The notes: generated by a model not told the origin, from the sequence alone. Shown: positions 7,374 to 61,859, counted from the stretch's first letter. The stretch: DNA of 61,859 nucleotides from an uncultured Thalassospiraceae bacterium (GCA_964632795.1 CAZWEZ010000006.1:1-61859), one strand, 5' to 3'. Program-made: numbers and translations.

Positions 7374-9488
7374 TCAGGCCAGTCCCAGCTCGGCCTTTTT
7401 CCGGGCGCACCAGGACTGCAGGATGCGGTCGGTGATCATGGCGATGAGGGCGATGTCGCCACCGGCGATGACGCCCCAGCCGAAGTTGGCCTTGGTAACC
7501 CCTTCGTAGACCAGCTGGCCCAGCCCCATCGTGCCGACGAGGGCGGCGATGACCAGCATCGCCAGCCCGAACATGATGGTCTGGTTGAGCCCCAGCATGA
7601 TTTCGGGAAGCGCCAGGGGAAGCTTCACCTGCCACAGGATTTGCGGCCTGGTGCAGCCGATCGATTCGGCGGCCTCGACGACGTCGGGGGCGACGTTGCG
7701 CAGGCCGCTTTCGGTGTAACGGATCGCCGGCACGATAGCGTAGATGATGATCGCCAGGAGGGCCGGAAATTCGCCGAGCAGGAACACCATGATGACCGGG
7801 ATCAGGAAGACGAACAGCGGCATCGTCTGCAGGGTGTCGTTGATCGGCCGCAGGAACGCCGACACCCGGTCGCTGTGGGCCGCCCAGATGCCGAGCCCGG
7901 CGCCCAGCACGAACGAGATGAACACCGCCGCCGCGGCAAGGTAGATGGTGAGCATGGCCCGCGACCACTCGCCCGTGACCAGGATGAAGCCGAGGCCGAG
8001 AAAGGCGAACAGCGCCAGCCGCCAACCGCCGACCTGATAGGCGAGGAGCGTCACCAGCAGGACGAACACCGGCCACGGCGTGCCGAGGGTGCCGAAGTAG
8101 TAGAACCCGCCGCAGACGGCGACGCCGACCACCGAGCGCCAGCTCGACAGCCGCCACGCCACGAACGCCAGCGCGGCCACGATCGCCACGTAGACGGCGA
8201 TCACCCCGGGGGTCAGTTCGAACCCCCAGGACCGGGGCCGGGCCACGCTCTCGAAGCCGATCCGCAAGGGCAGCATGAAATAATAGAGCGCCCCGGCCTT
8301 TATCGCGTCGGTCTGGTCCTTGTATTCGGTGACGACGTAGCTGACCGCGTCGTTGATCGGCTGCGCCGGGTAGAAGATCCACTCCTTGGGGAAGGTGCGC
8401 AGCGCCGGCGCCAGGTAGGCCAGGGCGATCAAGGCCACCGCCGCGCCAAGCACCATGTACAGGGTGGGACGATCGCGGAAGCCATGGCCCGTGACCCGCG
8501 CCCGCGCCGCGCCGGACCGCTCGGCGAAGCCGCGGCTGATGCGGTCCATCATCATCGCCATCAGCGCGATGACGATTCCGGCGAGGAAGCTCTGGCCGGT
8601 CTGGGCCTTGCGCATGGTGCTCAACACCTCCCAGCCGATGTCGGCGAAGCCGCCGATGACGGCGGCGATGATCACCATCGAAAGCGCCGCCATGATCGCC
8701 TGGTTGACCCCCATCATGATGTTGTGGGCCGCCGCCGGTATCTGCACCCACCCCAGAAGCTGGCGTTCGGTGCAGCCCGCCATGCGCCCCGATTCGACGA
8801 TCTCGGTGGGGACCAGGGCCAGCCCCAGCATGGTGTTGCGGACCATCGGCGGGACCGCGTAGATGACGCTGGCGACCAGCCCGACGACCGGGCCGAAGCC
8901 GAACAGCAGGAGAATGGGGATGAGATAGGCGAAGGTCGGCACCGTCTGCATGATGTCGAGCATCGGTACGATGACTTGGCGCGCGGCCGGCGACTTGAAG
9001 CCCCAGATCCCGATCACGAAGCCGATGGCGACGGCGAGCGGCACCGCGACCCCGACCAGGGCCAGGGTGTTCATGCTCTCTTCCCAATAGCCGACGACCA
9101 CCATGTAGAACAGCGAGAGGGCACTGAACACGGCCAGCCGCCAGCCCGAGGCGGCATGGGCCAGGGCGACGACGATGGCGATGGTGGCCGGCCACGGCAG
9201 CCAGTGAAGCAGGTTGCCGAGCCCCCTCATCGGCCAGTCGAGGAGCCAGCTGATGGCCCGGAACAACCATTTGAAGTTGGCGACGAACCACGCCATGGCG
9301 TCGTTCATCCAATCGCTGAACGGGATCACCCAGTCCTTGGGATAGGCCTTGATCCAGCCCACCTCGTCGCGGAGCCCGAAAAACACCACCGCAACCACGG
9401 CGACGACGATCCAGGAAACCAACGCCGGGTCGGCGCGGGGCGCCGACAACGGCGGCGCCGCGCCCCGGGTTTCCTCGGCCGCGGTCAT
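7374..9488 (-). CDS. Glycine betaine/proline-type ABC permease with two fused ProW domains
   Basis: Two copies of the D.MQT.P.F.YLIP...PA.A..IYA.PP..R.T..G...V...E.....G permease signature. Confidence 0.93.
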   Translation of the reverse strand: MTAAEETRGAAPPLSAPRADPALVSWIVVAVVAVVFFGLRDEVGWIKAYPKDWVIPFSDWMNDAMAWFVANFKWLFRAISWLLDWPMRGLGNLLHWLPWPATIAIVVALAHAASGWRLAVFSALSLFYMVVVGYWEESMNTLALVGVAVPLAVAIGFVIGIWGFKSPAARQVIVPMLDIMQTVPTFAYLIPILLLFGFGPVVGLVASVIYAVPPMVRNTMLGLALVPTEIVESGRMAGCTERQLLGWVQIPAAAHNIMMGVNQAIMAALSMVIIAAVIGGFADIGWEVLSTMRKAQTGQSFLAGIVIALMAMMMDRISRGFAERSGAARARVTGHGFRDRPTLYMVLGAAVALIALAYLAPALRTFPKEWIFYPAQPINDAVSYVVTEYKDQTDAIKAGALYYFMLPLRIGFESVARPRSWGFELTPGVIAVYVAIVAALAFVAWRLSSWRSVVGVAVCGGFYYFGTLGTPWPVFVLLVTLLAYQVGGWRLALFAFLGLGFILVTGEWSRAMLTIYLAAAAVFISFVLGAGLGIWAAHSDRVSAFLRPINDTLQTMPLFVFLIPVIMVFLLGEFPALLAIIIYAIVPAIRYTESGLRNVAPDVVEAAESIGCTRPQILWQVKLPLALPEIMLGLNQTIMFGLAMLVIAALVGTMGLGQLVYEGVTKANFGWGVIAGGDIALIAMITDRILQSWCARKKAELGLA

Positions 9489-10564
9489 CCGTCGCCTTCT
9501 TCCTCGCTTGCCAGGGTGAGAATGACTTCCTGGGGCGAGACGTGGCCGATCACCTCGCCGCCCTCGCCGGTGACGGCGACCGTCTCCATGTTTTCCGCAA
9601 ACCTGGCCATCAGGCGCTCGAGCGGGACGCCGGCGTCGACCGTGGTCGTGGGCTGGGGAACGTCACCGGGGGGCACCATGATGTCGCCGGCGGTGAGCAC
9701 CTTGACCCGGGGCGCGTCCTGGGTGAACTCGGTGACGTAGTCGTCGGCCGGCCGCATGACGACCTCGGTGGGGGTGCCGATCTGGACGATCTCGCCGTCT
9801 TTCATGATGGCTATGCGGTCGGCCAGGCGGAGCGCCTCGAGGAAGTCGTGGGTGATGAACACGATGGTCTTGTGGAGGAGCCGCTGAAGGCGCAGGAACT
9901 CGTCCTGCATCTGCCGGCGGATCAGCGGATCGAGGGCCGAGAACGGCTCGTCGAGGAACCAGATCTGGGGCTCGACGGCGAGCGACCGGGCGAGGCCGAC
10001 GCGCTGCTGCTGGCCCCCCGAGAGCTGGCGCGGAAAGCTCCCCTCGCGGCCCTCGAGGCCGACCAGGTCGAGCACCTCCATTGCCCGCTGGTGGCGTTGC
10101 TCCCGCCCCATCCCCTGGACCTTCAGCGGGAACGCCACGTTCTCGAGCACGTTCATGTGGGGCATCAGCCCGAAGTGCTGGAACACCATCCCCATCTTGT
10201 GGCGGCGGATCTCGATGAGTTCCTTCTTCGATACCTTGAGCAGGTCCTGGCCGTCGAACAGCACCTCGCCGGCGGTCGGCTCGACAAGCCGCGACAGGCA
10301 GCGGACGATAGTCGATTTGCCCGACCCCGACAGCCCCATGATGATGAAGATCTCGCCCATCTGGACGTCGAAGCTGACGTTGCAGGCGGCGGCGATGTGG
10401 CCGCTGGCGCGGATTTCCCCGATGTGGGCGGCGGGGTCCGGGACGATGCCGCTGGCATCATTGAAGAAGCTCTCGGGCCCGGTTCCGTAGATTTTCCACA
10501 GGTTGCGGCACGACAGCCTCGGCGTGCTGGCGGGACCGCCTTGGTTATCGGGCACGGGCATCAC
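9485..10564 (-). CDS. Glycine betaine/proline-type ABC ATP-binding subunit (ProV-like)
   Basis: [42 protein letters not shown]; C-terminal CBS-like tail. Confidence 0.95.
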   Translation of the reverse strand: MMPVPDNQGGPASTPRLSCRNLWKIYGTGPESFFNDASGIVPDPAAHIGEIRASGHIAAACNVSFDVQMGEIFIIMGLSGSGKSTIVRCLSRLVEPTAGEVLFDGQDLLKVSKKELIEIRRHKMGMVFQHFGLMPHMNVLENVAFPLKVQGMGREQRHQRAMEVLDLVGLEGREGSFPRQLSGGQQQRVGLARSLAVEPQIWFLDEPFSALDPLIRRQMQDEFLRLQRLLHKTIVFITHDFLEALRLADRIAIMKDGEIVQIGTPTEVVMRPADDYVTEFTQDAPRVKVLTAGDIMVPPGDVPQPTTTVDAGVPLERLMARFAENMETVAVTGEGGEVIGHVSPQEVILTLASEEEGDG

Positions 10565-10637
10565 TCGACAATCGGGTTGGCGCGGCGCGGAGGCCGGGAG
10601 GCCGGCGTTGCGGCCGACCCGCCCGCCCCGCTCCGCG

Positions 10638-11624
10638 TCAGTGTCCGGCCAGCGCCTTGTCGACCATCGGGCGCCACTTGGCCTCGTTGGCGTCGACCCA
10701 CGCCTTGGTGACCTCGACCAGGTCCTCGCCGCGGACGTCGATGGCGGCCATCATCGGGATCTGGTCCTCGTCGTCGAGCTGGTAGTTCTCGAGGAACCGG
10801 TAGGCCGCCGGCCACTTGTCCTTCATGCCCGTCCAGGCGACCTTGAAGGTGGTAGCGGCGTCGACCCCGCAGTCGCCGGTCTTGTCGGGATTGAGACCCC
10901 AGGCCGGGTCTTCGTTGCAGGCCGGATCGAACTTCGGCAATTCCACCCAGCCGACATCGACTTCGGCCAACACCCAGTGCGGCCCCCAGAACATCATCAC
11001 CAGCGGCGACTTGCGCTCCCAGGCGCTCTTCAGCTCGGCGACCAGCGCCCCTTCGCTGCCGCCGGGGACGGCCATGTAGGGCAGCTCCAGGGCCTCGATG
11101 GTCGCCGCCGAACGGCCGCCCCAGTCGGCCGGGTAGACGACGATGCGGCCCTTGGGGAAGGTTTCGGGCGTGGACAGGAGCTCGGTGCAGTCCAGAAGCG
11201 CTTTCCAGTCGGGAAGCCCCGGGCATTTCTGTTCCATGAACTTGGGGTAGACCCAGCCCTCGACGGTATCGACGCCGAGGTTGCCGATGCGCTCGACGTT
11301 GCCGGTGGCCTTGGCCTTCTCGAACTGATCGCCGAGGTTGTTGGACCAGATCTCCAGGCTGGCCGCCAACATGCCGTCGGTAAGCGCCTGGAACTGCGGG
11401 AAGTAGCCGGCGGTGACGTATTCCACGTTGTAGCCCATGCGCTTGAGGATCTCGCCGCCGATGTGGGTGGAGATGTGTTGACCCGTCCACTCGTTGATCG
11501 CCAACTTGATCGGATCGGTGGACTCGGGCACGTCCCCGGCATCGGCCGGTGACGCCATGGTGAGAACGGCCGCCACCCCGACACCGATGGCGCCAAGGGT
11601 CGCCTTATGCAAAAAACCTTTCAT
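10638..11624 (-). CDS. Glycine betaine/proline-type ABC substrate-binding protein (ProX-like)
   Basis: Signal peptide; NEWTGQ, LEIW and FWGPHW aromatic-box-type residues. Start moved to ATG 11624 with a GGAGG-like RBS. Confidence 0.92.
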   Translation of the reverse strand: MKGFLHKATLGAIGVGVAAVLTMASPADAGDVPESTDPIKLAINEWTGQHISTHIGGEILKRMGYNVEYVTAGYFPQFQALTDGMLAASLEIWSNNLGDQFEKAKATGNVERIGNLGVDTVEGWVYPKFMEQKCPGLPDWKALLDCTELLSTPETFPKGRIVVYPADWGGRSAATIEALELPYMAVPGGSEGALVAELKSAWERKSPLVMMFWGPHWVLAEVDVGWVELPKFDPACNEDPAWGLNPDKTGDCGVDAATTFKVAWTGMKDKWPAAYRFLENYQLDDEDQIPMMAAIDVRGEDLVEVTKAWVDANEAKWRPMVDKALAGH

Positions 11625-11810
11625 TGATTCCTCCCTGTCTTCCGGACCCGAGCAACGGTCTGGTTTTCCCCGTCTTGAACTCACTCAAGTGCTTCGTTTA
11701 TGCACCCGGGGGCCGTCATCGGGGATACTTACGTTTTAGTATATATGGCCATGACAAATCAAGCACGAGGATGGCCGCCACTCGCTCGCGGGCGCCGCGG
11801 GATCGGTATG

Positions 11811-13451
11811 CTATGGGGCGCTGTTCTCCCGGAAATGGAAGTCGGCGTGGAACGGCGCCAGTTGTTCGACCCCCTTGATGAAGTCCGCCGCGCGCTCGGC
11901 GATCATCTGGGTCGGCGCGTCCAGGTTGGCGCTGATGATTTGGGGCATCACCGAGGCATCGACGACACGCAGCCCTTCCATGCCGCGGACCTTCAGTTCG
12001 CCGTCCACCACCGCCATCGCATCGGTGCCCATGGAGCAGGTGCAGCACGGATGGAAATCGGTCTCGGCGCTTGCCCGTATCCAGGCTTCGATGTCGGCGT
12101 CCGGCCCCGGTTCCTTTTCCCGCCCCCGGTAGTCGTCGAAAGCCGGCTGGGCGATCAGGTCGCGGATCAGTTTGACACCCTCGATCAACTGTCGCCGGTC
12201 ATTTTCCGTGGCCAGGAAATTGAAATGCAACGCCGGCTTCTCATGGGGGCTGTTCGAGTTCAGGGCGATATGGCCCCTGCTTTCCTGTCGCAACAGGTCC
12301 AGGTGAATCGAAAACGCCTGGTCCAGCCTGATTTCATCGCCGACGTAGTCGAAGCCGACCGGGGCGAAATGGTATTGCAGATTGGGGTAGGGAACGTCGG
12401 CATTGCCGCGGACCAGGCCACCGGCCTCCCAGATGTTCGACGCCGCCAGGCCGGAGCGATCGACCATCCAGCGCGTGCCCGCCCACAGCTTGCGTATCGG
12501 GTTGGCGATGCCGTGGATCGTCACCGGCCTGGTGCATTGATATTTGACGATGACGTCCACGTGGTCCTGCAGGTTCCGGCCGACCCCGGCCAGGTCGTGG
12601 AGCGGATCGATGCCGACCGAGCGAAGATGGTCCGCCGGACCGATACCCGACAGCATCAACAGTTGCGGTGAATTGATGGCGCCGCCCGAGAGAATGACCT
12701 CCTTGGCCGCCCGGACCGTGCGGCGTTGGCCGCGTTGCTCGTATTCGACGCCCGTCGCGCGGTTGCCCTCGATCAGCACCCGGTGGGCCAGGGCGCGGGT
12801 TTCGAGGCACAGGTTTTGCCGACTCAGAGCCGGTTTCAGATGGGCCACCGCGGCACTGCAGCGCCGGCCGTCGCGCTTGGAGCAGTCGAACCGCGCCAGG
12901 CCTTCGGGTTTGTAGCCGTTCAGGTCATCGGACCGGCCCTGGCCCGATTGCTCTCCGGCCTCGAGAAAAGCGTCGAACAGGGGGTTTTCCAGCCTCCCCC
13001 GGGATACGCCGAGGGGGCCCGAACCGCCGCGCCAGTCGTCGGCGCCGCGGTCGTAGGTTTCGCATTTCTTGAAATACGGCAGGCATTGGGCGTAGTCCCA
13101 GCGCCCCAGATCGAACTCCTCCGCCCAACGGTCGTAGTCGAGCGGGTGACCCCGCATGTAGACCATCGAGTTGATCGAAGACGACCCGCCGACGACCCGG
13201 CCGCGCGGGATCGGGATGTTGCGCCCATGGAGGCCGGACTCGGCCTCGCTCTGGTAGTTCCAGTTGAACCGCGGGTCCTTGTAGACCCGGTAGACCCCGG
13301 CCGGGATGTGGATGAACAGGTTGCGGTCCATGGGACCGGCTTCGAGCACCAGCACGCTGGTACCGGGGTCCTCGCTCAGGCGACCGGCCAAGACGCATCC
13401 CGCCGACCCGGCGCCGACGATCACGTAGTCATAGGTTTGGGTCTTCGCCAT
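11811..13451 (-). CDS. GMC-family oxidoreductase (choline dehydrogenase-like)
   Basis: DYVIVGAGSAGC, GRVVGGSSSINSMVY, LMLSGIG, GRNLQDH, FHPCCTC, LRVVDASVMP. Substrate not established. Confidence 0.92.
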   Translation of the reverse strand: MAKTQTYDYVIVGAGSAGCVLAGRLSEDPGTSVLVLEAGPMDRNLFIHIPAGVYRVYKDPRFNWNYQSEAESGLHGRNIPIPRGRVVGGSSSINSMVYMRGHPLDYDRWAEEFDLGRWDYAQCLPYFKKCETYDRGADDWRGGSGPLGVSRGRLENPLFDAFLEAGEQSGQGRSDDLNGYKPEGLARFDCSKRDGRRCSAAVAHLKPALSRQNLCLETRALAHRVLIEGNRATGVEYEQRGQRRTVRAAKEVILSGGAINSPQLLMLSGIGPADHLRSVGIDPLHDLAGVGRNLQDHVDVIVKYQCTRPVTIHGIANPIRKLWAGTRWMVDRSGLAASNIWEAGGLVRGNADVPYPNLQYHFAPVGFDYVGDEIRLDQAFSIHLDLLRQESRGHIALNSNSPHEKPALHFNFLATENDRRQLIEGVKLIRDLIAQPAFDDYRGREKEPGPDADIEAWIRASAETDFHPCCTCSMGTDAMAVVDGELKVRGMEGLRVVDASVMPQIISANLDAPTQMIAERAADFIKGVEQLAPFHADFHFRENSAP

Positions 13452-13498
13452 CGCGTTCCCCCCGGCCCGTCCGTTGGCCTCGGATGCATATCACGGAT

Positions 13499-13520
13499 TT
13501 ATCCGGCATTTCCCGGATAA
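13499..13520. promoter_or_regulatory. Palindrome TTATCCGG-N6-CCGGATAA upstream of the GMC gene (candidate operator)
   Basis: Perfect 8-bp arms in the divergent intergenic region, with a wider imperfect dyad around them. Confidence 0.35.
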
Positions 13521-13728
13521 CTTTCAAATCCACGGTGATAGTACCCAAATCCACCGCCCTTGGAATCACTAACCCACTCCATAGCTGACCTTGAAGCCAC
13601 GTTCGACTGCTCAGGGTCCGACAACGGACCATCTTCGGCGAAACGCTGATATTGATACAGTTCGCCGGAATCGTGTAATTATTTCTCGGACTGTTACTCC
13701 TGTATTTGGGGAAGGGATTCGTTGTGGC

Positions 13729-52998: not shown

Positions 52999-54315
52999 TT
53001 AGTCGTCCAGCTTGAAGACGGTGCGGCCGTCGATCACCGTGCGCAGGACCCGGCCCTGCACCGGGCGGCCGTCAAACGGCGTGTTCTTGGACTTGCTGAG
53101 CAGGTCGTCGGCCTCCACCTTCCAGCCGCGCTGGGGGTCGAACACCACCAGGTCGGCCGGCGCTCCCTTGTCGAGCCGCCCGGCGGGCAGCCCCAGCAGG
53201 TCGGCCGGGGCGCGGGTGATCAGCCCCAGCGTCTCGAGCAGCGACAGGTGGCCGTTGTGGTGCAGCTCGAGGGTTACCGCCAACAGGGTCTCGACCCCGA
53301 TGCCGCCGAAGGCGGCCTGGGCGAAGGGCAGCCGCTTGGCGTCCTCGTCCTGGGGCGCGTGGTCCGAGGCGATGGCGTCGATGGTGCCGTCGACCAGCCC
53401 GGCGACCACCGCCTGGCGGTCGTCCTCGTCGCGCAGCGGCGGCGACAGCTTGGCGAAGGTCCGGTAATCGCCGAGCGCGGTCTCGTTCAGCGCGAAATAC
53501 GGCGGCGCGGTGTCACACGTCACGTCCAGCCCCTGGGCCTTGGCCCGGCGCACCGCATCGATGGCGTCGGCGGTCGACAGGTGGGCGAAGTGGAGCCGCG
53601 CCCCGGTCATCGTGGCGAGGCGGATGTCGCGTTCGACGATGATGGTTTCGGCCTCGCGCGGGATTCCCGACAGGCCGAGGCGGGTCGCCATCTCGCCCGA
53701 GTTCATGTCGCCGCCAGCGGCCAGGCTGGGCTCCTCGGGGTGCTGGATGATGAGCAACCCGAAGGTGGCGGCGTAGCTCAAGGCCCGGCGCATCACCTGG
53801 GCGTCGGCGACCGTCTTGACGGCGTCGGTGAAGGCCAGCGCCCCGGCTTCCGAAAGCATCCCCATTTCGGCAATCACCTGGCCCTCCAGGCCCTTGGTCA
53901 CGGCGCCGTAGGTGTAGACCTTGGTCAGCCCCAGCTTGCGCGCCCGGCGGGCGACGAACTCGACCACCGACATGTCGTCGATCACGGGAATGGTGTTGGG
54001 CAGGGCGACCATCGAGGTGATGCCCCCGGCCGTCGCCGCGCGGCCGGCCGAGGCCAGCGTCCCCTTGTGCTCCTCGCCCGGTTCGCGCAACTGGACCCGG
54101 ATATCGACCAACCCCGGGGCCAGGCAGGCGCCGGCGCAATCGACCTCGCGGATGCCGTCGGGAACCCCGTCGGCGAACAGCCCGGGCCCGAAGTCGGCGA
54201 TCGTCTCGCCGTCGGTGAGCAGCGCCCCGGTCCGATCCAGGCCCGAGGCCGGGTCCAACAGCCGGGCGTCGAGATAGGCCACCCGGCCCAGGGGTTCGCC
54301 GGTCCCGGGCGTCAT
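52999..54315 (-). CDS. pyrC: Dihydroorotase (PyrC/PyrC'-type)
   Basis: [10 protein letters not shown] (metal-binding His pair absent, PyrC'-like), GGIT...PNT.P, KLSPPLR, IASDHAP. Start at ATG 54315. Confidence 0.92.
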
Positions 54316-55280
54316 CGCCCGGCCTCCGGATGGGGCAGGTTGAGGGCCAATATCTCGAGGCAGGCCATGCGCACCGCGACCCCCATCTCGACCTGCTCGC
54401 GGATCGCGCTGCGGCCGATGTCGTCGGCGACCAGCGAGTCGATCTCGACGCCGCGGTTCATCGGCCCGGGGTGCATGACCAGGGCGTCCGGCTTGGCGTT
54501 GGACAGCTTCTCGTAGTCGAGCCCGAAGAAGTGGAAGTACTCGCGGATCGAGGGGAAGAAATTGGCGTGCATGCGCTCGGACTGGAGGCGCAGCATCATC
54601 ACGATGTCGCAGTCCGCGAGGCCCTTGTTCATGTCGTGGAAGACCTCGACGCCCAGCTTCTCGGCCTGGGCCGGGATCAGGGTCTTGGGGCCGATCAGGC
54701 GGACCCGCGCCCCCATGGTGTTGAGCAGGTGGATGTTGGAACGGGCCACCCGGGAATGGACGATATCGCCGCAGATCGCCACCAGCAGCCCCGACAGGCG
54801 GCCGGTGCGCCGCCGGATGGTGAGGGCGTCGAGCAGGGCCTGGGTGGGGTGGGCGTGGCTGCCGTCGCCGGCGTTGATCACCGCGCAGTTGACCTTCTCG
54901 GACAGCAGCTTGACGGCGCCCGAGTCGGAATGGCGCACCACCAGCACGTCGGGGTGCATGGCGTTCAGCGTCATCGCGGTGTCGATCAGGGTCTCGCCCT
55001 TCTTGATCGCGCTGGTCGAGGTGGTCATGTTGATGACGTCGGCGCCGAGCCGCTTGCCGGCCAGCTCGAACGAGGTCCGGGTGCGGGTCGAGGCCTCGAA
55101 GAACAGGTTGATGATCGAGCGCCCGTGGAGCAGGGTCTTCTTCTTGTCGGCCTGCCGGTTCTGGTCGACGTAGCTTTCGGCGCGGTCCAGCAGAAGGGTG
55201 ATGACGTCGGGCGAAAGCCCTTCGATTCCGAGCAGGTGGCGGTGGGGGAAGGAGGGGGTGTCCTGGGCGCCGGATGTCAT
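54312..55280 (-). CDS. pyrB: Aspartate carbamoyltransferase catalytic subunit
   Basis: [44 protein letters not shown]. Confidence 0.98.
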
Positions 55281-55330
55281 GGCCCGGCACTATAGGACCC
55301 CGCGGGCGGGCTAAGCAAGACGCGGAACGA

Positions 55331-56509
55331 TCAGGCCATGGCCCCGGTTCCCGGATAGGCCTTTTGAAATGGCTCGTCGTCTTCGAAGCGGGTCGGCCGA
55401 TAGGGCTCGATGGGGAGGATTCGACTGGCCCCGAATGCCATCTTCTCGGCCACCATCATGGAGATGCACGGGGCAAGTTTGAAGCCGCCCCCGGAGAGGC
55501 CGCAAATCGCGATCAGGCCGTCTTTCCCGGGAAAGCCCCCGATCAGGGGGTTGCTGTCGGGCGAGATGTCGTAGCGTCCCGCCCAGTGCGAAGTGATACG
55601 TCCGCCGTCGAGGCCGCGGAAGCAGTTCTCTAAATTCCGCAGGAAATGTCCGGCGCCGTCCCTTGGCAGGCTCTCATCGAGGGGATCGGGACGGGTCATG
55701 GCGCTGCCCCTGTTGGAGTCGCCGAACAGCATCCCGCCGTCTTGCGGGCGGTTGTAGCAAACCCCGGGAAGGTCGCGGACGACGGGGAATCGCTTGCCCG
55801 CATATTCCTCGTCGAAGCCAAAGTGGACGACCTTGTGATTGGTAATTTCGTACGGATAGTGAATTCCAACGGTCTCGGTGAGGGTGTTGGTCCACGCCCC
55901 GGCGGCGACGACCACGGTTTCACCGCATATGATCCCGTCGTCCGTTTCCACCCCGTCGACCTTGTCCTCCCGGGATTCCACCAGACGCCGGACGCCGACG
56001 CCCTGGCGGATTTCGACGCCCCCTCGGCGGGCCGCGTCGGCATAGCCGGTGGTTGTCAGGTGCGGATCGGCATAACCCGATAAGGGCTCGTATGCCGCCA
56101 GGGCGATGCGGGCGGGATTGAGCAGGGGATGGATTTCCAGGGCCTGACGGGTGTCGATCAAGTCGACCTCGGCGCCGGTTTCCCGTTGCATCTTGATGTT
56201 GCGCCGCAAATCTTCCGCTGCATCGGCGTCCGAGAAGATCAAATAGCCGCATCTCTCGAACCCCGATGAGCCACCGACCCGCTCGCTGAAATCGGCCAGA
56301 ACGTCGCGCCCGGTGGTGGCCATTCGGCAGGTCAGCGGATTCGAATAGTGGGTGCGCACGATGGCGCAACTCTTCGCGGTATCGCCCGAACATACGGCGC
56401 CTTTGTCCAATATTAGAATGGAACGGCCGTCCAATTCGGCCAGATAGAATGCAAGGGAGCATCCGATCACGCCGCCGCCGATGATTATCGTGTCGTAGGC
56501 CTTGGCCAT
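55331..56509 (-). CDS. FAD-dependent amine oxidoreductase (DAO/SoxB family)
   Basis: IIGGGVIGCS, GDTAKSCAIVRTHY, VVAAGAW, WAGRYDISPD..P.IG, GLSGGGFK. Start at ATG 56509 with a GGAGG RBS. Confidence 0.9.
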   Translation of the reverse strand: MAKAYDTIIIGGGVIGCSLAFYLAELDGRSILILDKGAVCSGDTAKSCAIVRTHYSNPLTCRMATTGRDVLADFSERVGGSSGFERCGYLIFSDADAAEDLRRNIKMQRETGAEVDLIDTRQALEIHPLLNPARIALAAYEPLSGYADPHLTTTGYADAARRGGVEIRQGVGVRRLVESREDKVDGVETDDGIICGETVVVAAGAWTNTLTETVGIHYPYEITNHKVVHFGFDEEYAGKRFPVVRDLPGVCYNRPQDGGMLFGDSNRGSAMTRPDPLDESLPRDGAGHFLRNLENCFRGLDGGRITSHWAGRYDISPDSNPLIGGFPGKDGLIAICGLSGGGFKLAPCISMMVAEKMAFGASRILPIEPYRPTRFEDDEPFQKAYPGTGAMA

Positions 56510-56601
56510 CCGCCTCCTCCATTGCCGCGACGACGGCTCAATCTCCGTGCGGCCCCTCTGCGCGCCGGGGCTTTCGACGGCCATCGGGGATCGGCGCGCC
56601 A

Positions 56602-56631
56602 TTGACACGGGCAACCGGGAAACATTAGTGT
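56602..56631 (+). promoter_or_regulatory. sigma70 promoter TTGACA-18-TAGTGT placing +1 at or near the phnR ATG
   Basis: -35 at 56602-56607, -10 at 56626-56631, ATG at 56638; no SD in between. Confidence 0.6.
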
Positions 56632-56637
56632 ACATCC

Positions 56638-57435
56638 ATGAATCAAACTTGGTCTATACCAGAAGCGGATACGTGGTCTATACCAGATAATGCCCGGAGA
56701 TCGTGGGACCGCAAAATTCCCTATTACTTGCGCATTCGGGATCATTTCGCGTCATTGATAGATACCGGCCGGTTGGCTCCGGGGATGAAACTGCCCCCGG
56801 AACGCACGCTCGGCGACCGCTTCGCCATTACCAGGGTCACCGTCCGTCAGGCGCTCATGCAGCTCGAGGCCGAAGGGCTCATCTATCGGCAAAACCGCCG
56901 CGGCTGGTTCGTTTCACCGCCGAGGATCCAATACGATCCGACCGCCAACGTCAGTTTCACCGAAAGTGCGACGCGCCAAGGCCGGGTCCCCGGCATAACC
57001 GTCTTGTCGAAGGAACGAATTCCGGCCACCACTTGGGAGAGCGAATACCTCGACATCGCCGAGGGCGATCCGATTTTTCTCATTCGCCGGCTGCGCTCGG
57101 TCGACGGACGCACGGTCCTCCTCGAGCACATTCATGTGGTTGCCGAGAGATTCCCCGGTCTTCTGGAGCACGCGCTCGACAGCTCGTTGACGGAATTGAT
57201 ATCCGAGCAGTACGGGGTCAACGAACATCGCGCCCGGATCGTCATGCGCCCGACCGCGTTGTCTGACCTCCAGGCCCGGGCCCTGGAGGTCGCGGCGGGG
57301 ACGCCCAGTTTGTATCTTTGCCGGGTCATTCACGATCAGTTCGACAATGTGATAGAATTCGACCAGGAGTTCTGGCGTTTCGATGCGCTCGATATCTGTG
57401 TCGGGGTAAACGAAACGGCGCAAGAGGAAACATAA
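56638..57435 (+). CDS. phnR: GntR/HutC-family regulator, PhnR-like (wHTH + UTRA)
   Basis: KLPPERTL...[41 protein letters not shown] closely follows the PhnR pattern (GLIYR.DRRGWFV.P.R...DPT). Confidence 0.82.
56650..56685. promoter_or_regulatory. Operator pair TGGTCTATACCA x2 (56650-56661, 56674-56685)
   Basis: Identical 12-mers, near-palindromic, of the HutC/PhnF-type operator pattern. Confidence 0.85.
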
Positions 57436-57463
57436 AAACAAGAAACTCGAGGGGGGAAGCAAG

Positions 57464-58219
57464 ATGACCGGTGAAACACCGATCGTGGTGGTCAACGATA
57501 TCTGCAAGACCTTCGACGTCCCGGGGCGCGACCCGGTCCATGCCCTTCAACACGTTACCAACCACGTCGACAAGGGCGAGGTCCTGGTCCTGATCGGACC
57601 GAGCGGTTCCGGCAAAAGCACCTTCCTTCGGGCGCTCAACGGACTGGAGGCCGTCGACAGCGGCTCCATCGTCATCGACGGCGTCGAGCTCACCGACCCC
57701 AAGACAAACCTCAACAAGTTGCGTCAGGGCGTCGGCATGGTTTTCCAGCACTTCAACCTGTTCCAGCACAAGACGGCGCTTGAAAACATCACCATGCCCC
57801 AGACGGTGGTTCTCAAGCGCTCCCAGCAGGAAGCCGACGAAATCGGCCACCAACTGCTCGAGCGCGTCGGCATCGGCGACAAGGTGGATTCCTATCCAAG
57901 CCAGCTTTCCGGCGGTCAGCAGCAACGCGTCGCCATCGCCCGTTCGCTGGCCATGACCCCAAAGGTCATGCTGTTCGACGAAGTGACATCGGCGCTCGAC
58001 CCGGAAACGATCGGGGGCGTGCTCGATCTGATGGTGGAACTGGCCGCCGACGGCACGACCATGGTCGTCGTCACCCACGAAATGGGCTTTGCCCGCAAAG
58101 CGGCCGACCGCGTCATTTTCATGGACCAAGGCAGGATCATCGAAGAGGGTCTTCCCGACACCGTCTTCGACGATCCCCGGCACGAGCGCACCCGCACCTT
58201 CCTGAGCCAGATTATTTAG
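57464..58219 (+). CDS. Polar amino-acid ABC ATP-binding protein
   Basis: [43 protein letters not shown]. Confidence 0.95.
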
Positions 58220-58270
58220 AACCTGTTTGGAAAGTCGATCACGGGTTGCGCGGAAAGACTTCGGAGTTTT

Positions 58271-58305
58271 TGGTATAGACCAGAATTAAAACCTGGTCTA
58301 TACCA
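58271..58305. promoter_or_regulatory. Operator pair TGGTATAGACCA (58271-58282) and TGGTCTATACCA (58294-58305)
   Basis: The same 12-mer as in phnR, once in each orientation, upstream of the SBP gene. Confidence 0.85.
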
Positions 58306-58397
58306 AGATGGTCTGGGTTTCGGAAGCCCCAGGACAAGATTCCTGAAAAAGGAACATCCGTCCGACGAGGACAAGACAGCAAAGGGAGATTGACGAG

Positions 58398-59210
58398 ATG
58401 AACCGATTCACCAAACTGCTAACTCTGGGTATCTGCGCATTGGGACTGAGCGTGTTTGCCCACAACGCGTTGGCCGATGTGGTCAGCGATATCGTCAAGC
58501 GGGGGGAATTGCGCGTCGCCGTACAGACCCAGGGACCACCGGTGAGCTACGTCGACACCAAGGGCAACCGCACCGGCTTCGCGGTCGAGCTCGTCAAGAT
58601 GATGGCCGAGGACATGGGCGTGAAGCTCAAGCTTCTCGACTACGACTGGAAGGGACTGATCCCCGCCGTCACTTCGGGCAAGGCTGATTTCCTGGCCGCC
58701 GACATGACGCCTAAGCCCAAGCGTGCGCTGGTTCTGATTTTCACCGAACCGTACATGTACAGCCGAAACGTCATTTACGCGAAGAAGTCCAAGCCGTTCA
58801 GGAAATGGCAGGACGCCTGCGTCAAGGGTGTCTCGGTCGCCGTGGTCCAGGGCAGCAGCAACGTCGGAGTGCTCAAGGCCAAGTGCCCGCTGGCGACGAT
58901 CAAGGAATTCGCCGGCGGCGGGCCCGCCGTCGCCCAGGCCGTCTCCGCCGACCGCGCCGATGCCGGGATCAACGACGAGGCCTCGGCAAAAGGGTATATG
59001 ATCGAGTATCCGGAATTCTGGATTCTCGATGGCGCGCCCGATAGAGGGCCGCTCAGCTTCGCCACCCGGCCCGAGGAAACCCACCTGGTCAGGTGGATGG
59101 ACAACTACTTGATGTTGATCAAGGCCGACGGCCGCATGGACAAGCTCTTGGACTACTGGATGTTTGGCACCGCCTGGAAGACGGAGCAGACGCCAGTGCC
59201 GAAACAATAG
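58398..59210 (+). CDS. Polar amino-acid ABC substrate-binding protein (family 3)
   Basis: Signal peptide; GELRVAV, GFAVEL...A.DMGVKL, W.GLIPA..SGKAD. Confidence 0.93.
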   Translation: MNRFTKLLTLGICALGLSVFAHNALADVVSDIVKRGELRVAVQTQGPPVSYVDTKGNRTGFAVELVKMMAEDMGVKLKLLDYDWKGLIPAVTSGKADFLAADMTPKPKRALVLIFTEPYMYSRNVIYAKKSKPFRKWQDACVKGVSVAVVQGSSNVGVLKAKCPLATIKEFAGGGPAVAQAVSADRADAGINDEASAKGYMIEYPEFWILDGAPDRGPLSFATRPEETHLVRWMDNYLMLIKADGRMDKLLDYWMFGTAWKTEQTPVPKQ

Positions 59211-59238
59211 GCGAAGATAAGCGCCTTCGTTGCGATCC

Positions 59239-59269
59239 CGGGGGCTCCGCCGGCATGGTGGAGCCCCCG
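59239..59269 (+). terminator. Stable stem-loop between the SBP and permease genes
   Basis: CGGGGGCTCC/GGAGCCCCCG perfect 10-bp arms with no U tract; more likely an mRNA-stability hairpin than a true terminator. Confidence 0.5.
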
Positions 59270-59310
59270 TTATAGCGACCGGACAGGTTCCGGAAATCCG
59301 GCGGTAATCC

Positions 59311-59994
59311 ATGGATTGGATCCTCGATTTCTACAACTACCGCGTCGCCGTCCAGTATGTACCGGAGTTCACGCGGGGCATTACGGCGACCGCCTGGATT
59401 TCGGCGGTGTCGCTGGTTTTGTCCCTGGTCATCGGCACGGTGGCCGCCATCATGCGGATGTCCGCCAACCCGATCCTGTGGCGCATCGCCGCCGGCTACG
59501 TGCAGGCGATCCGCTCGACGCCGCTGCTGATCCAGATCTATGTGATCTATTTCAGCCTGCCGGCGCTGCCCCTGCTCGGCCGCCGCCTGGACGAGATCGA
59601 AGGGGGCATCATCGCGCTCGGCCTCAACGCCGGCGCCTACATGAGCGAGATCATCCGCGCCGGCATCGAGTCCATCTCACGCGAGCAGGTCGAGGGCGCC
59701 CAGTCCGTCGGCATGACCTATCTGCAGCGCATGCGTCACGTGGTGCTGCCGCAGGCTTTCGCCAACGTCCTGCCGCCGCTGCTCGGCCAGACGGCGGTTC
59801 TCATCAAGGACTCATCCCTGGTCAGTTTCATCGGCGTCTTCGAGCTTTTCGGCGCCGGCTTGACGGTTCTCAGCGAGCGGCTGATGCCCAACGAAGCGTT
59901 CCTTACGGTCGCCGTCCTATACCTGGCGATTTACGGGGTCATGCTGTTTCTCTCCGATTACGCTCAGCGCCGACTGGGCGGGGTTCGGGGCTGA
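59311..59994 (+). CDS. Polar amino-acid ABC permease
   Basis: RSTPLLIQ, GAYMSEIIRAGI, EGA.SVGM, KDSSL. Confidence 0.94.
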   Translation: MDWILDFYNYRVAVQYVPEFTRGITATAWISAVSLVLSLVIGTVAAIMRMSANPILWRIAAGYVQAIRSTPLLIQIYVIYFSLPALPLLGRRLDEIEGGIIALGLNAGAYMSEIIRAGIESISREQVEGAQSVGMTYLQRMRHVVLPQAFANVLPPLLGQTAVLIKDSSLVSFIGVFELFGAGLTVLSERLMPNEAFLTVAVLYLAIYGVMLFLSDYAQRRLGGVRG

Positions 59995-59995
59995 T

Positions 59996-60670
59996 ATGAC
60001 CACGTTCGATGTGATTTCGGCCACCATGCCCTTCCTTCTGGAAGGATTGTGGATGACCTTCAAGATTTCGCTCATCACTATCATCTGCGGAAGTCTGCTC
60101 GGCTTCGTCGTCGGGATGCTGCGTACGGTGGGCGGCTGGCTCGTTTACGCGGCGCTGGGACTTTACATCCATACGTTGCGGGGGACGCCGTTCCTGGTCC
60201 ATCTCTACATCATTTACTTCGTGCTGCCGGCGACGGGAATTTCGTGGCTGCAGCTGGAAGCCTTTCCGGCGGCGGTGATCGCCCTCAGTCTCTACACCTC
60301 GACCTACGTGTCGGAGATCGTGCGGGCGGCGATCCAGGCGGTGCCCCGCGGCCAGACCGAAGCGGCGCGCTCGACCGGAATGACGACCCTACAGTGCATG
60401 TGGCACGTGGTGCTGCCCCAAGCCCTGAAACTGATGATCCCGCCGATGGGCGGTATTTACGTCATCATCATCAAGGGCACTTCCATCGTCTCGGTCATCG
60501 GCATCGCCGAGTTGGTCCGGGCCGGTGAACACGCCACCCAGCGCCACCCCAGGGAACTGATGGTGATCTACGGTCTGACGGCGCTGATGTACTTCACCTA
60601 CTGCTATCCCGTCCTGCGTATCGCCCGCTGGGCCGAAAGCAAGTTCGGCAGCGTTCGCTTGCCGTCGTGA
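59996..60670 (+). CDS. Polar amino-acid ABC permease
   Basis: RGTPFLV, YVSEIVRAAIQAVPRGQTEAA, KGTSI. Confidence 0.94.
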   Translation: MTTFDVISATMPFLLEGLWMTFKISLITIICGSLLGFVVGMLRTVGGWLVYAALGLYIHTLRGTPFLVHLYIIYFVLPATGISWLQLEAFPAAVIALSLYTSTYVSEIVRAAIQAVPRGQTEAARSTGMTTLQCMWHVVLPQALKLMIPPMGGIYVIIIKGTSIVSVIGIAELVRAGEHATQRHPRELMVIYGLTALMYFTYCYPVLRIARWAESKFGSVRLPS

Positions 60671-60721
60671 GTCGGACCGGCTCGCGCCGACGGCAACCAG
60701 GGATCAAGGACGAAACAAAAA

Positions 60722-61753
60722 ATGGAAATCGAAAACAGAAGAATTCGGCTTGGAGTCCACTCCGTCAGCTTTGCCAACCATCGCCGCTACAAAGAAGGCT
60801 TCGATGTCTACGCCCTGATCGATGCGGCGGCGGGCCTCGGCGTGTCCGGGGTCCATATCAGCCTGAATGACGCCAATTACCGCTGGATTGGCGGCACCTC
60901 ACCGGGCCGGCTTCGGGCCGTCGGCGAGGCGGTGCGGGCGCACGGCATGTTTTTGGAAATCGACACCTCGGGGACCGGCGAGGAACACCTGATCAAGCTC
61001 CTCAATGCCGCCCGGATGCTCGGCGCGGACCGGCTCAGAACCTATGTCACGGTGGAGGGAAGCCCCGAGGAAAGGGCGCTCGCGACCATCCGCGGTCTAC
61101 GCGGGGCGGTGCCCGTCGCGGCGGATCTGGGAATCATGCTCCTGCTTGAAAATCACGAGGACTTCACCGGCCGGGAGATCGCTCGCATCATGGAGGAGGT
61201 GGACCACCCCTCGGTCGGAGCGTTGTACGATTTCGGAAACTCGATGATGGTCCTGGAGGACCCCATGGAGGCGGCAAAGGCGATGGCGCCCTTCGTCCGC
61301 ACGGTTCATTTGAAGGATCACATCCTGACCGAGGACCCCGGCCTCTCCGGCGCGGCGGCGGGGGAGAACACGATCGTGTGTGGGGTGCCTATCGGCCGGG
61401 GGAACATCGATATCGAGGGAATCCTCGGCTTCCTGCTGAAAAACACCAACCTGAACCGGGTGTGCATTCAGAGCGTTTACGGTTACCGGGCGCCTATCGC
61501 CAGAAACCTGTCCCATCTTGGAGAGGCGGCGCGGCGGTATCCGGTTTTCGTTCGTGAAAACGGCCTTTTGGACGAATCCATCTGTATCATGGACGCCGAA
61601 TCGCTTTCCCGCGTCGATCCCGGCCGACTCCTGAACTACGAGCTGAGCGCCGTTGCGCTGGGGGTCGGGAAAGTGCGAGAGATCCTTGTCGACCTTGGCT
61701 TCCATTTCGTTTCCAGCGGCCTCTGCGTGGAGTACAAGCAAAGGGCCGGATGA
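60722..61753 (+). CDS. Xylose isomerase-like TIM-barrel protein (sugar phosphate isomerase/epimerase family)
   Basis: LLLENHED, LYDFGN and VHLKD metal motifs, G.GNID. Confidence 0.85.
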   Translation: MEIENRRIRLGVHSVSFANHRRYKEGFDVYALIDAAAGLGVSGVHISLNDANYRWIGGTSPGRLRAVGEAVRAHGMFLEIDTSGTGEEHLIKLLNAARMLGADRLRTYVTVEGSPEERALATIRGLRGAVPVAADLGIMLLLENHEDFTGREIARIMEEVDHPSVGALYDFGNSMMVLEDPMEAAKAMAPFVRTVHLKDHILTEDPGLSGAAAGENTIVCGVPIGRGNIDIEGILGFLLKNTNLNRVCIQSVYGYRAPIARNLSHLGEAARRYPVFVRENGLLDESICIMDAESLSRVDPGRLLNYELSAVALGVGKVREILVDLGFHFVSSGLCVEYKQRAG

Positions 61754-61859
61754 TTGCCCTCCGGGAACCGATAGCGGCCTGCGTCATTAGAGCATTCCAG
61801 GATTGATCACGTTCACGCGATCAATCCACGTTCAAACGCCACGCAGGCTTACGCCCGCT

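Follow-up and report, generated by a model that had tools for sequence, protein, structure and literature searches.

The question raised by this locus is what a regulator resembling PhnR, which is known from the regulon for 2-aminoethylphosphonate (AEP), controls when none of the usual phosphonate genes stands beside it. The locus occupies positions 55331–61753 of a stretch of 61,859 nucleotides from an uncultured Thalassospiraceae bacterium (GCA_964632795.1, CAZWEZ010000006.1:1-61859), the whole of which is referred to here as the window. Profile searches and the window sequence identified the region as one unit of seven genes and four exact operators. This module is predicted to provide the inducible uptake and catabolism of a phosphorus-bearing compound resembling an alpha-amino acid, either a phosphoester or a phosphonate, with a triosephosphate isomerase (TIM) barrel enzyme performing the core step and a flavoenzyme as an accessory; we give this reading a probability of about one half. 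A first-pass annotation made from the sequence had listed a PhnR-type regulator, four operator copies, a divergent oxidoreductase of the DAO family, a polar amino-acid importer and a TIM-barrel gene, and all of these were located. The features of the module are as follows.

55331–56509, minus strand: flavin adenine dinucleotide (FAD)-dependent amine oxidoreductase of the DAO family, SoxB/proline-dehydrogenase-beta-like, 392 aa (PF01266, 3e-60)
56602–56631, plus strand: candidate promoter of the regulator-ATPase operon, TTGACA, 18-nt spacer, TAGTGT, read from the sequence
56638–57435, plus strand: GntR/HutC-family regulator with a helix-turn-helix and a UTRA effector domain, 265 aa (PF00392 and PF07702)
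56650–56685, plus strand: operator pair 1, two direct copies of TGGTCTATACCA 24 bp apart, at 56650 and 56674 (exact word match)
57464–58219, plus strand: ATPase of an ATP-binding cassette (ABC) transporter, GlnQ/EhuA-like (PF00005; GlnQ model 283 bits)
58271–58305, no single strand: operator pair 2, two inverted copies of TGGTCTATACCA 23 bp apart, at 58271 (minus) and 58294 (exact word match)
58398–59210, plus strand: periplasmic substrate-binding protein (SBP) of the SBP_bac_3 polar amino-acid type, with a signal peptide (PF00497)
59311–59994, plus strand: ABC permease 1, HEQRo type with three transmembrane (3-TM) segments (PF00528 and TIGR01726)
59996–60670, plus strand: ABC permease 2, HEQRo 3-TM type (PF00528 and TIGR01726)
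60722–61753, plus strand: xylose-isomerase-fold TIM barrel, cytoplasmic, 343 aa (PF01261, 5e-19)

The open reading frame (ORF) of the oxidoreductase extends over 55331–56635, and its start was corrected to the ATG at 56509 because the close homologues are all 392 aa long and a GGAGG lies 5–8 nt upstream of this ATG. A gap of 28 bp separates the regulator stop codon from the ATPase gene, and 178 bp separate the latter from the binding-protein gene. Profile searches identified no phnW, phnX, phnA or phnY within the window, in keeping with the first-pass statement that these are missing up to its edge. That edge is the end of a contig, as the window is the complete contig C6 and its 3′ end is an assembly break. 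The contig terminates inside a dispersed repeat of ~72 bp (61787–61859), of which at least 12 further copies, 87–96% identical, are found on other contigs of the genome; this repeat probably explains the break just after the TIM gene.

Four species-level relatives encode TIM proteins 69–76% identical to that of the window. Two of them (L012 and L013) exhibit the same seven-gene order and the other two (L011 and L014) part of it, with L014 holding the end of the TIM gene between different flanks. Across these four, the TIM gene is followed by an opposite-strand EipB-like gene, an ArsR gene, unrelated ORFs, or a lactonase with a binding protein. The next gene is therefore a different one in each relative and is never phnW or phnX, the canonical continuation that the first-pass annotation had regarded as decisive against its reading. 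Beyond these relatives, metagenomic contigs supplied another four copies of the module, whose flanks differ as well. In all, the same layout and the same operator places were found in seven further loci (L012, L013, L030, L031, the P0015 and P0017 contigs and the split contigs of G108). Because the flanking genes differ in every relative, the module is considered self-contained. Neither it nor the seven loci of the same layout include a phn gene, so the claim of a non-canonical gene set holds; the phnW/phnX or phnWYA genes that adjoin a classical PhnR are missing throughout. The module is present in 3 of 15 genomes of the family and was not found in the 386 other genomes sampled from the order; one of these encodes a 43%-identical TIM relative from another clade. 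This patchy distribution and the changing flanks fit an accessory, laterally moving unit. A description of this gene set was found neither in the Pbf papers and the AEP transporter paper nor in the literature searched on phosphonoalanine catabolism and PhnR operators.

The regulator exhibits the GntR winged helix, the UTRA domain and the palindromic core operator of the HutC subfamily. It scores 255.1 bits with TIGR03337 (phnR), for which the curated cut-off is 296.75, and the next models are PhnF (101 bits), PRK11402 (87) and HutC (86); its orthologues in related modules score 249–270 bits with TIGR03337. In this lineage the cut-off does not separate true from false members, because none of 401 genomes sampled from the order exceeds it and a regulator located inside a phnR-ABC-phnW-phnX cluster (L043, genome G351 of the same order) scores 211 bits. 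The window regulator is 45% identical to this phnWX-linked protein, and the L043 cluster contains the identical 12-mer twice, before its binding-protein gene and before phnW. On these sequence criteria, namely the best TIGR03337 score by far and the operator and identity shared with L043, the regulator is placed in the PhnR clade of the HutC regulators, which bears out the earlier naming of a PhnR-type protein. It is also the sole PhnR-like gene in the genome.

The operator TGGTCTATACCA is a 12-mer that contains the core GTCTATAC, with the palindrome GT-N-TA-N-AC of HutC operators. It occurs exactly four times in the window, and when up to two mismatches are allowed, 11 matches are found there (each site counted on both strands) versus 0.91 expected, a number reached by 0 of 100 shuffled sequences. 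A genome-wide scan had been proposed as a means to define the regulon. In the 3.78-Mb assembly, the exact sites are these four alone, and none lies at a phn locus; one-mismatch matches are at the level of a reversed-pattern control and are coding-like. Pair 1 is found inside regulator codons 5–16, ~140–175 bp upstream of the oxidoreductase start, and pair 2 is found ~95–125 bp upstream of the binding-protein gene. In the relatives, an operator is positioned at regulator codon 3 (L012 and L013) or codon 13 (L030 and L031), and L030, L031, L147, L148, L149 and L151 all have one within the first regulator codons. Ahead of the binding-protein gene, operator pairs are found in L012 and L013 and single exact sites in L030 and L031. 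The operator coordinates in the regulator ORFs of relatives are L012:874-900, L013:3667-3690 and L025:7-80. Pair 1 encodes W(S/T)IP..WSIP, and WTIP...WSIP with the residues that follow is kept, with conservative changes, in the 65%-identical regulator of L025, so this DNA seems to double as operator and coding sequence. The candidate promoter was not returned by a consensus scan. It ends 6 nt before the regulator ATG, a distance that suggests a leaderless regulator-ATPase mRNA.

The case for phosphorus is made by variants of the module. The TIM orthologue closest to that of the window (82%) is encoded in L025 together with a regulator 65% identical and the same operator, in an operon for an Opp-type (SBP_bac_5) importer, an EEP-family enzyme and an NPP-family phosphodiesterase, with a PhnD-like binding protein on the opposite strand. 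In G154, the polar amino-acid importer (binding protein 83% identical) is followed by an EEP gene of the L025 type. The contig concerned (L148, G154:C84, 5684-7896) has this EEP gene split into ORFs 5684-6091 and 6093-6611, followed by a DDE_3 transposase gene. In G186, the importer (binding protein 84%) and regulator stand alone, divergent from serB (TIGR00338, 189 bits vs a cut-off of 144) with operators between them; in a sister species, serB is divergent from a different polar amino-acid ABC operon. The adjacency in G186 weakly suggests a phosphorus compound. The highest PhnR scores in the order (284–296 bits) belong to regulators of G099, G336 and G367, which are associated with a PhnS/AepX-family ABC transporter, an NPP enzyme and a HAD-IB phosphatase, 66–87% identical across the three genomes. 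At these loci (L145, G099:C6; L146, G336:C39; L144, G367:C314) the regulator is divergent from a PhnS/AepX-family SBP gene, a short NPP gene, two permease genes, an ATPase gene and the HAD-IB gene. No TGGTNTANACCA operator was found at L144, L145 or L146, and phnX is located on other contigs of those genomes. This PhnS-like ABC-NPP-HAD-IB cluster is a second undescribed PhnR-like module.

TrpB2, an O-phosphoserine-dependent enzyme (PMC11917138), is encoded beside the PhnR-like regulator in L145; it was rejected as support and attributed to chance, as this neighbourhood is not kept in L144 or L146 and the genome of the window encodes its own TrpB2 elsewhere. Given the variants in L025, G154, G186 and the G099/G336/G367 group, PhnR-clade regulators in this order appear, from gene content, to sit on several organophosphorus-amine modules, with phnWX just one of them. 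The first-pass annotation had proposed a different aminophosphonate or a phosphorylated amino acid as the substrate; the variant contexts favour a phosphorus-bearing amino compound as the probable substrate.

Phosphonate genes of the known kind do occur elsewhere in the genome. Contig C30 (8435-10365) encodes phnW-phnX without a regulator or transporter, between a CHAT-domain gene and a pyrroline-5-carboxylate-reductase-like gene, and contig C52 (~7900-13700) contains an FeADH-unknown-ABC ATPase-permease-permease-phnX operon without phnW. The module could then be an auxiliary branch for AEP or N-methyl-AEP, in which the flavoenzyme would act as a Pbf enzyme yielding phosphonoacetaldehyde, PhnX from C30 or C52 would act in trans, and the TIM barrel would be a passenger or a side-product enzyme. 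In favour of such a branch, neither the C30 pair nor the C52 phnX has a regulator nearby, the module regulator is the only PhnR-like protein of the genome, and FAD enzymes have been recruited to the phosphonoacetaldehyde-forming job at least three times (PMC10590968). Neither locus, however, has an exact or one-mismatch operator. phnX is present in 4 of the 6 module-bearing genomes and absent from the other 2, and because 8 of 14 genomes of the family have phnX in any case, the co-occurrence is uninformative. The co-located and co-regulated genes of a hydrolytic AEP pathway (PhnW or an oxidase with PhnX, or PhnY with PhnA) are not found, and no PhnJ of the carbon-phosphorus (C-P) lyase was identified in the genome, which is 96% complete.

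The flavoenzyme fits this branch poorly as well. Its best solved relative is 1y56_B, the beta subunit of a Pyrococcus proline dehydrogenase (140 bits). Dimethylglycine dehydrogenases and SoxB come next, and all of these solved relatives oxidise N-alkyl amino acids. Its orthologues are 392 aa long and 63–75% identical. For comparison with the Pbf enzymes, twenty phnX loci of the same order were fetched, six of which have a DAO gene beside phnX. The DAO of the phnW-phnX-DAO arrangement on an Azospirillum sp. B510 plasmid was taken as PbfC, which was described from the cluster of that strain (PMC10590968). The module flavoenzyme is 27.5% identical to the B510 protein and 25–28% identical to seven phnX-adjacent DAOs including it. 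In a quick maximum-likelihood tree, with the B510 protein as the Pbf reference, the phnX-adjacent DAOs form one clade (support 99) and the module enzymes another (support 100) that joins stand-alone SoxB-like proteins. The Pbf-type kinship proposed by the first-pass annotation was thus not upheld against PbfC, the member compared: a PbfC-type enzyme is ruled out by the low identity, the separate clade and a position outside any phnWX or phnWYA cluster.

In Roseovarius sp. CAU 1744 the module consists of regulator, ATPase, binding-protein, permease and TIM-barrel genes and has the operator, and no flavoenzyme gene lies beside them. No flavoenzyme orthologue was identified in that genome, where the best match is 30% identical and lies within an 860-aa open frame. 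Judged by this gene content, the flavoenzyme is dispensable and accessory in the module. Because Roseovarius keeps the TIM barrel without it, the TIM barrel and not the flavoenzyme is the enzyme tied to the importer, which speaks against an AEP branch. Together with a binding site whose alpha-amino-acid spacing misfits AEP, as described below, this makes the AEP branch very unlikely. A flavoenzyme homologue (36%) on a Paraburkholderia plasmid was also considered as a context clue, and was uninformative, being situated among nif/fix genes.

The importer has all the parts of the polar amino-acid transporter (PAAT) type: an SBP_bac_3 protein, two HEQRo 3-TM permeases and a GlnQ-like ATPase (283 bits with the GlnQ model). 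The best solved relative of the binding protein is AncCDT-1 (130 bits), and the protein aligns over its full length with AncCDT-1 and other amino-acid binders. In the AncCDT-1 alignment, GMTITPER corresponds to DMTPKPKR and the TD position to ND, so that Thr, Arg and Asp are kept, while an extra Asp and two Lys are inserted around the Thr-Arg motif. This Thr/Arg/Asp triad is invariant in six module binding proteins, including that of Roseovarius, and the orthologues are 73–84% identical. By what we take to be the roles of the triad in GlnBP and LAOBP, Thr and Arg hold the alpha-carboxylate and Asp the alpha-ammonium group. The conserved residues would accordingly suit an alpha-amino acid whose side chain is polar or anionic better than they suit AEP. 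All three characterised AEP importers belong to PF13343 or the major facilitator superfamily (PMC8316502). The opine- and deoxyfructosyl-amino-acid-binding proteins NocT and SocA are weak matches of the binding protein.

The TIM protein scores 69.4 bits with PF01261 (gathering threshold 31.1), and no curated NCBIfam model, such as those for hydroxypyruvate or 2-oxo-tetronate isomerase, matches it at E ≤ 1e-5. Its AlphaFold (AF2) model, with a predicted local distance difference test (pLDDT) score of 94, shows a regular barrel of the xylose-isomerase fold, extended at the C-terminus by ~60 residues. The nearest solved folds are the isomerase Art22 (8z1i, Z 27), on which no paper was found in the literature search, and the uncharacterised 4ovx (Z 26); further fold matches include IolI, ketose 3-epimerases, C-glycoside deglycosidases and dehydratases, with endonuclease IV at Z 18, and identity to any solved chain is at most 22%. 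In an alignment of 35 relatives, E143, D170, H196 and K198-D199 are invariant, and a DTSGT loop is present. The Glu-Asp-His-Glu metal/catalytic tetrad of the epimerase/isomerase type is incomplete: its fourth position is Gln250 in 13 of 13 module-type TIM proteins, while 20 of 22 distant relatives have Glu there and the other two Ser. By its position on strand 8 of the model, this fourth column would be a metal ligand.

The relatives of the TIM protein fall by identity into three context classes. Module-type proteins (≥56%) occur with PhnR-like regulators. In the second group (46–52%), the TIM gene is translationally coupled to a gene for a pyridoxal phosphate (PLP) enzyme resembling threo-3-hydroxyaspartate ammonia-lyase and is followed by an NAD epimerase/dehydratase-type gene, adjoining dapA and smpB in several marine alphaproteobacteria (L027, L028, L029 and L061–L065); clade-B relatives are located among sugar-nucleotide genes. 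The genome of the window has the PLP gene on C79 and the epimerase-type gene on C67, on separate contigs, and no second TIM gene. In the third group (40–46%), the TIM gene lies directly behind a gene for an APH-family kinase at five unrelated loci (L066, L067, L136, L139 and L140), one of which adds a GbcA-like Rieske oxygenase, a LysR regulator and a 446-aa DAO, and another an Ldh_2 dehydrogenase. A 73%-identical homologue of this 446-aa DAO is encoded on contig C60 of the window genome. The kinase-TIM pair, which is also in line with a phosphorus-bearing ligand, is uncharacterised and probably has a role in amine catabolism. Some relatives of 40–49% identity have been named 3-oxoisoapionate decarboxylase by the Joint Genome Institute (JGI). 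A metagenome scan with the module-type TIM alignment returned almost only gut relatives of 30–35% identity and clade-B operons, and no new module variants.

Enzymes of the PF01261 fold typically act through an enolate or enediolate next to a carbonyl, with isomerisation, or the elimination or cleavage of a beta-substituent, as the outcome. Both its fold and its partners suggest that the TIM protein performs chemistry of this enolate type; the molecule acted on would be small and charged, in many cases phosphorylated, and amine-derived. The first-pass annotation had assigned an undescribed step to this protein; from its retention with the importer in Roseovarius, where the flavoenzyme is missing, it is the putative core enzyme of the module.

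The coupling of clade-B TIM genes to an enzyme resembling threo-3-hydroxyaspartate ammonia-lyase raises the alternative of a beta-hydroxy or D-amino acid as the ligand, for example D-serine, 3-hydroxyaspartate or 4-hydroxythreonine. The flavoenzyme would convert it into a 3-hydroxy-2-oxo acid, on which the TIM barrel would act in the manner of a hydroxypyruvate or 2-oxo-tetronate isomerase. Such a ligand agrees with the alpha-amino-acid triad of the binding protein, and its alpha-hydroxy-carbonyl product is the classical substrate type of the fold. The TIM protein, however, matches none of the NCBIfam models at 1e-5 and carries Gln in place of the fourth Glu, and a PhnR-like regulator and phosphoesterase-bearing variants are left unexplained, so that this alternative is quite improbable.

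A phosphorus-free N-substituted amino acid, such as an Amadori- or opine-like sugar conjugate or a marine opine, is a further candidate. Here the binding protein would read the amino-acid end, the flavoenzyme would cleave the secondary amine, and the TIM barrel would isomerise or epimerise the sugar-like part. In its favour, sugar isomerases and epimerases are the nearest folds of the TIM protein, and clade-B relatives lie among sugar-nucleotide genes; against it, the regulator is far closer to PhnR (255 bits) than to FrlR-type or other HutC models (87 bits). The flavoenzyme's nearest solved relatives do oxidise N-alkyl amino acids, but solved amadoriases are not among its protein data bank matches at 1e-10, and the Roseovarius module has no flavoenzyme at all. 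The weak NocT and SocA matches suit an opine, and the Opp-type binding protein and phosphodiesterases of L025 bring the agrocinopine system to mind; against this, no module encodes a kinase, a deglycase or a sugar-catabolic enzyme, and the variants carry phosphoesterases rather than glycosidases. On balance a ligand of this kind is unlikely.

In the preferred reading, that of a phosphorus-bearing amino-acid-like ligand, the regulator would bind both TGGTCTATACCA pairs, one at the 5′ end of its own ORF and shared with the divergent flavoenzyme gene and the other in front of the binding-protein operon, and as a repressor it would hold the seven genes off until an effector appears. The importer would then take up a compound with an alpha-amino and alpha-carboxylate (or isosteric) head, most probably phosphorus-bearing; O-phosphoserine-like compounds, serine phosphodiesters and phosphonoalanine are candidates. 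In the cytoplasm, a metal-dependent TIM enzyme would perform the core step, and the SoxB-like flavoenzyme would oxidise a C-N bond, either in the substrate itself or in a product. A more specific version, which we regard as distinctly doubtful, is that the TIM barrel would itself release phosphorus as a metal-dependent lyase or hydrolase, cleaving either the C-P bond of a beta-oxo phosphonate (for example phosphonopyruvate, of which phosphonoalanine would be the precursor, with the flavoenzyme or else a transaminase making the conversion) or the C-O-P linkage of a phospho-amino acid derivative. This idea arises by analogy with the beta-keto-acid decarboxylase annotated among the TIM relatives.

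Several points weigh against a phosphorus-bearing ligand. None of the enzymes encoded in the module of the window is known to break a C-P or P-O bond, the nearest solved relatives of its TIM protein are sugar isomerases and epimerases, and phospho- or phosphono-amino acids are not known to us as substrates of any member of the PF01261 fold. SBP_bac_3 is not among the families known to bind phosphonates, and neither the C30 phnWX genes nor the C52 ABC-phnX operon has the operator, as noted above. The GT-N-TA-N-AC core is generic for HutC regulators, and the sites of DasR and NagR are nearly the same word. Because of this, a common operator is no proof of a common effector; shared DNA specificity says little about the ligand, and the operator is weak evidence for it. 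Two of the variants also have their own difficulties: the EEP gene of G154 is frameshifted and followed by an insertion sequence (IS), so that this copy of the module looks decayed, and the serB gene of G186 is the only copy in its genome, so that its place beside the module could have arisen through a chance insertion.

Of the dissolved organic phosphorus in the sea, a considerable share consists of aminophosphonates and phospho-amino compounds, and this share turns over quickly. Not all substrates are covered by the routes described so far (PhnWX, PhnWYA, PhnY*Z, C-P lyase and PbfA-F) and by the known importers PhnD, PhnS, AepX and AepP. In marine Rhodospirillales-like bacteria, PhnR-clade regulators would control at least four sets of cargo: phnWX; a PhnS-like ABC transporter with NPP and HAD-IB enzymes; an Opp-type ABC transporter with EEP, NPP and TIM enzymes; and a polar amino-acid ABC transporter with TIM and usually a DAO. 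In the last set, the importer belongs to a family that has so far had no link to organophosphorus compounds, and the two enzymes, to which no reaction has been assigned, have not been described in such a role. The cargo is new, and the HutC/PhnR-regulated operon of an ABC transporter plus enzymes is of a known kind. If the ligand does bear phosphorus, the marine phosphorus cycle would gain a substrate, a family of transporters and perhaps a new enzymatic activity. Should the TIM barrel release the phosphorus, then this enzyme, the SBP_bac_3 importer and the PhnR-clade repressor would together define a route for organophosphorus amino acids of the sea that has not been described. Even with a ligand free of phosphorus, the locus is a conserved catabolic module without a published description, and it offers an inducible pair of repressor and operator that is ready for use.

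Upstream of the module, a 763-aa ORF (52999–55290, minus strand) is an over-long frame, of which residues 340–761 alone match dihydroorotase (pyrC). The true pyrC-like gene is predicted from this match to encode ~430 aa and is unrelated to the module.

Among known systems, the catabolism of phosphonoalanine in Variovorax sp. Pal2 involves the transaminase PalB, the hydrolase PalA of the phosphoenolpyruvate (PEP)-mutase/isocitrate-lyase superfamily and a LysR regulator. If the ligand of the module were phosphonoalanine, PalB and PalA would be its functional analogue, with removal of the amine to give phosphonopyruvate and cleavage of the C-P bond; none of the PalB, PalA or LysR families is represented in the module. 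The opine and Amadori loci of Rhizobiaceae (occ/noc and soc) combine an SBP_bac_3 importer for an N-substituted amino acid with a DAO-family oxidase and a substrate-responsive repressor. They differ from the module in that their regulators belong to another family or clade and no PF01261 enzyme is known to have a core role in them, whereas the module variants carry phosphoesterases. Compared with enzymes of PF01261 (Art22 8z1i, 4ovx, IolI, ketose 3-epimerases and 3-oxo-isoapionate decarboxylase), the TIM protein exhibits the same fold (Z 22–27 over ~250 residues) and the conserved Glu, Asp and His at the C-terminal face of the barrel, but it has Gln for the fourth Glu, the ~60-residue C-terminal extension and a place in an amino-acid importer operon instead of a sugar operon. 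The Pbf FAD oxidoreductases PbfB, PbfC and PbfD (Zangelmi et al. 2023, PMC10590968) share PF01266, a PhnR-type context and an expected C-N oxidation with the module flavoenzyme, but they reside inside phnWX or phnWYA clusters and, as far as PbfC was compared, in a separate clade. The closest parallel in regulation and layout is the PhnR AEP regulon (phnR-phnSTUV-phnWX), as in L043, which has a GntR and UTRA repressor with TIGR03337 as the best model, the identical TGGTCTATACCA ahead of transporter and catabolic genes, and the order of regulator, ABC transporter and enzymes. Where that regulon employs a PF13343 PhnS-type binding protein with PhnW and PhnX, the module encodes an SBP_bac_3 protein, a SoxB-like flavoprotein and a PF01261 TIM barrel.

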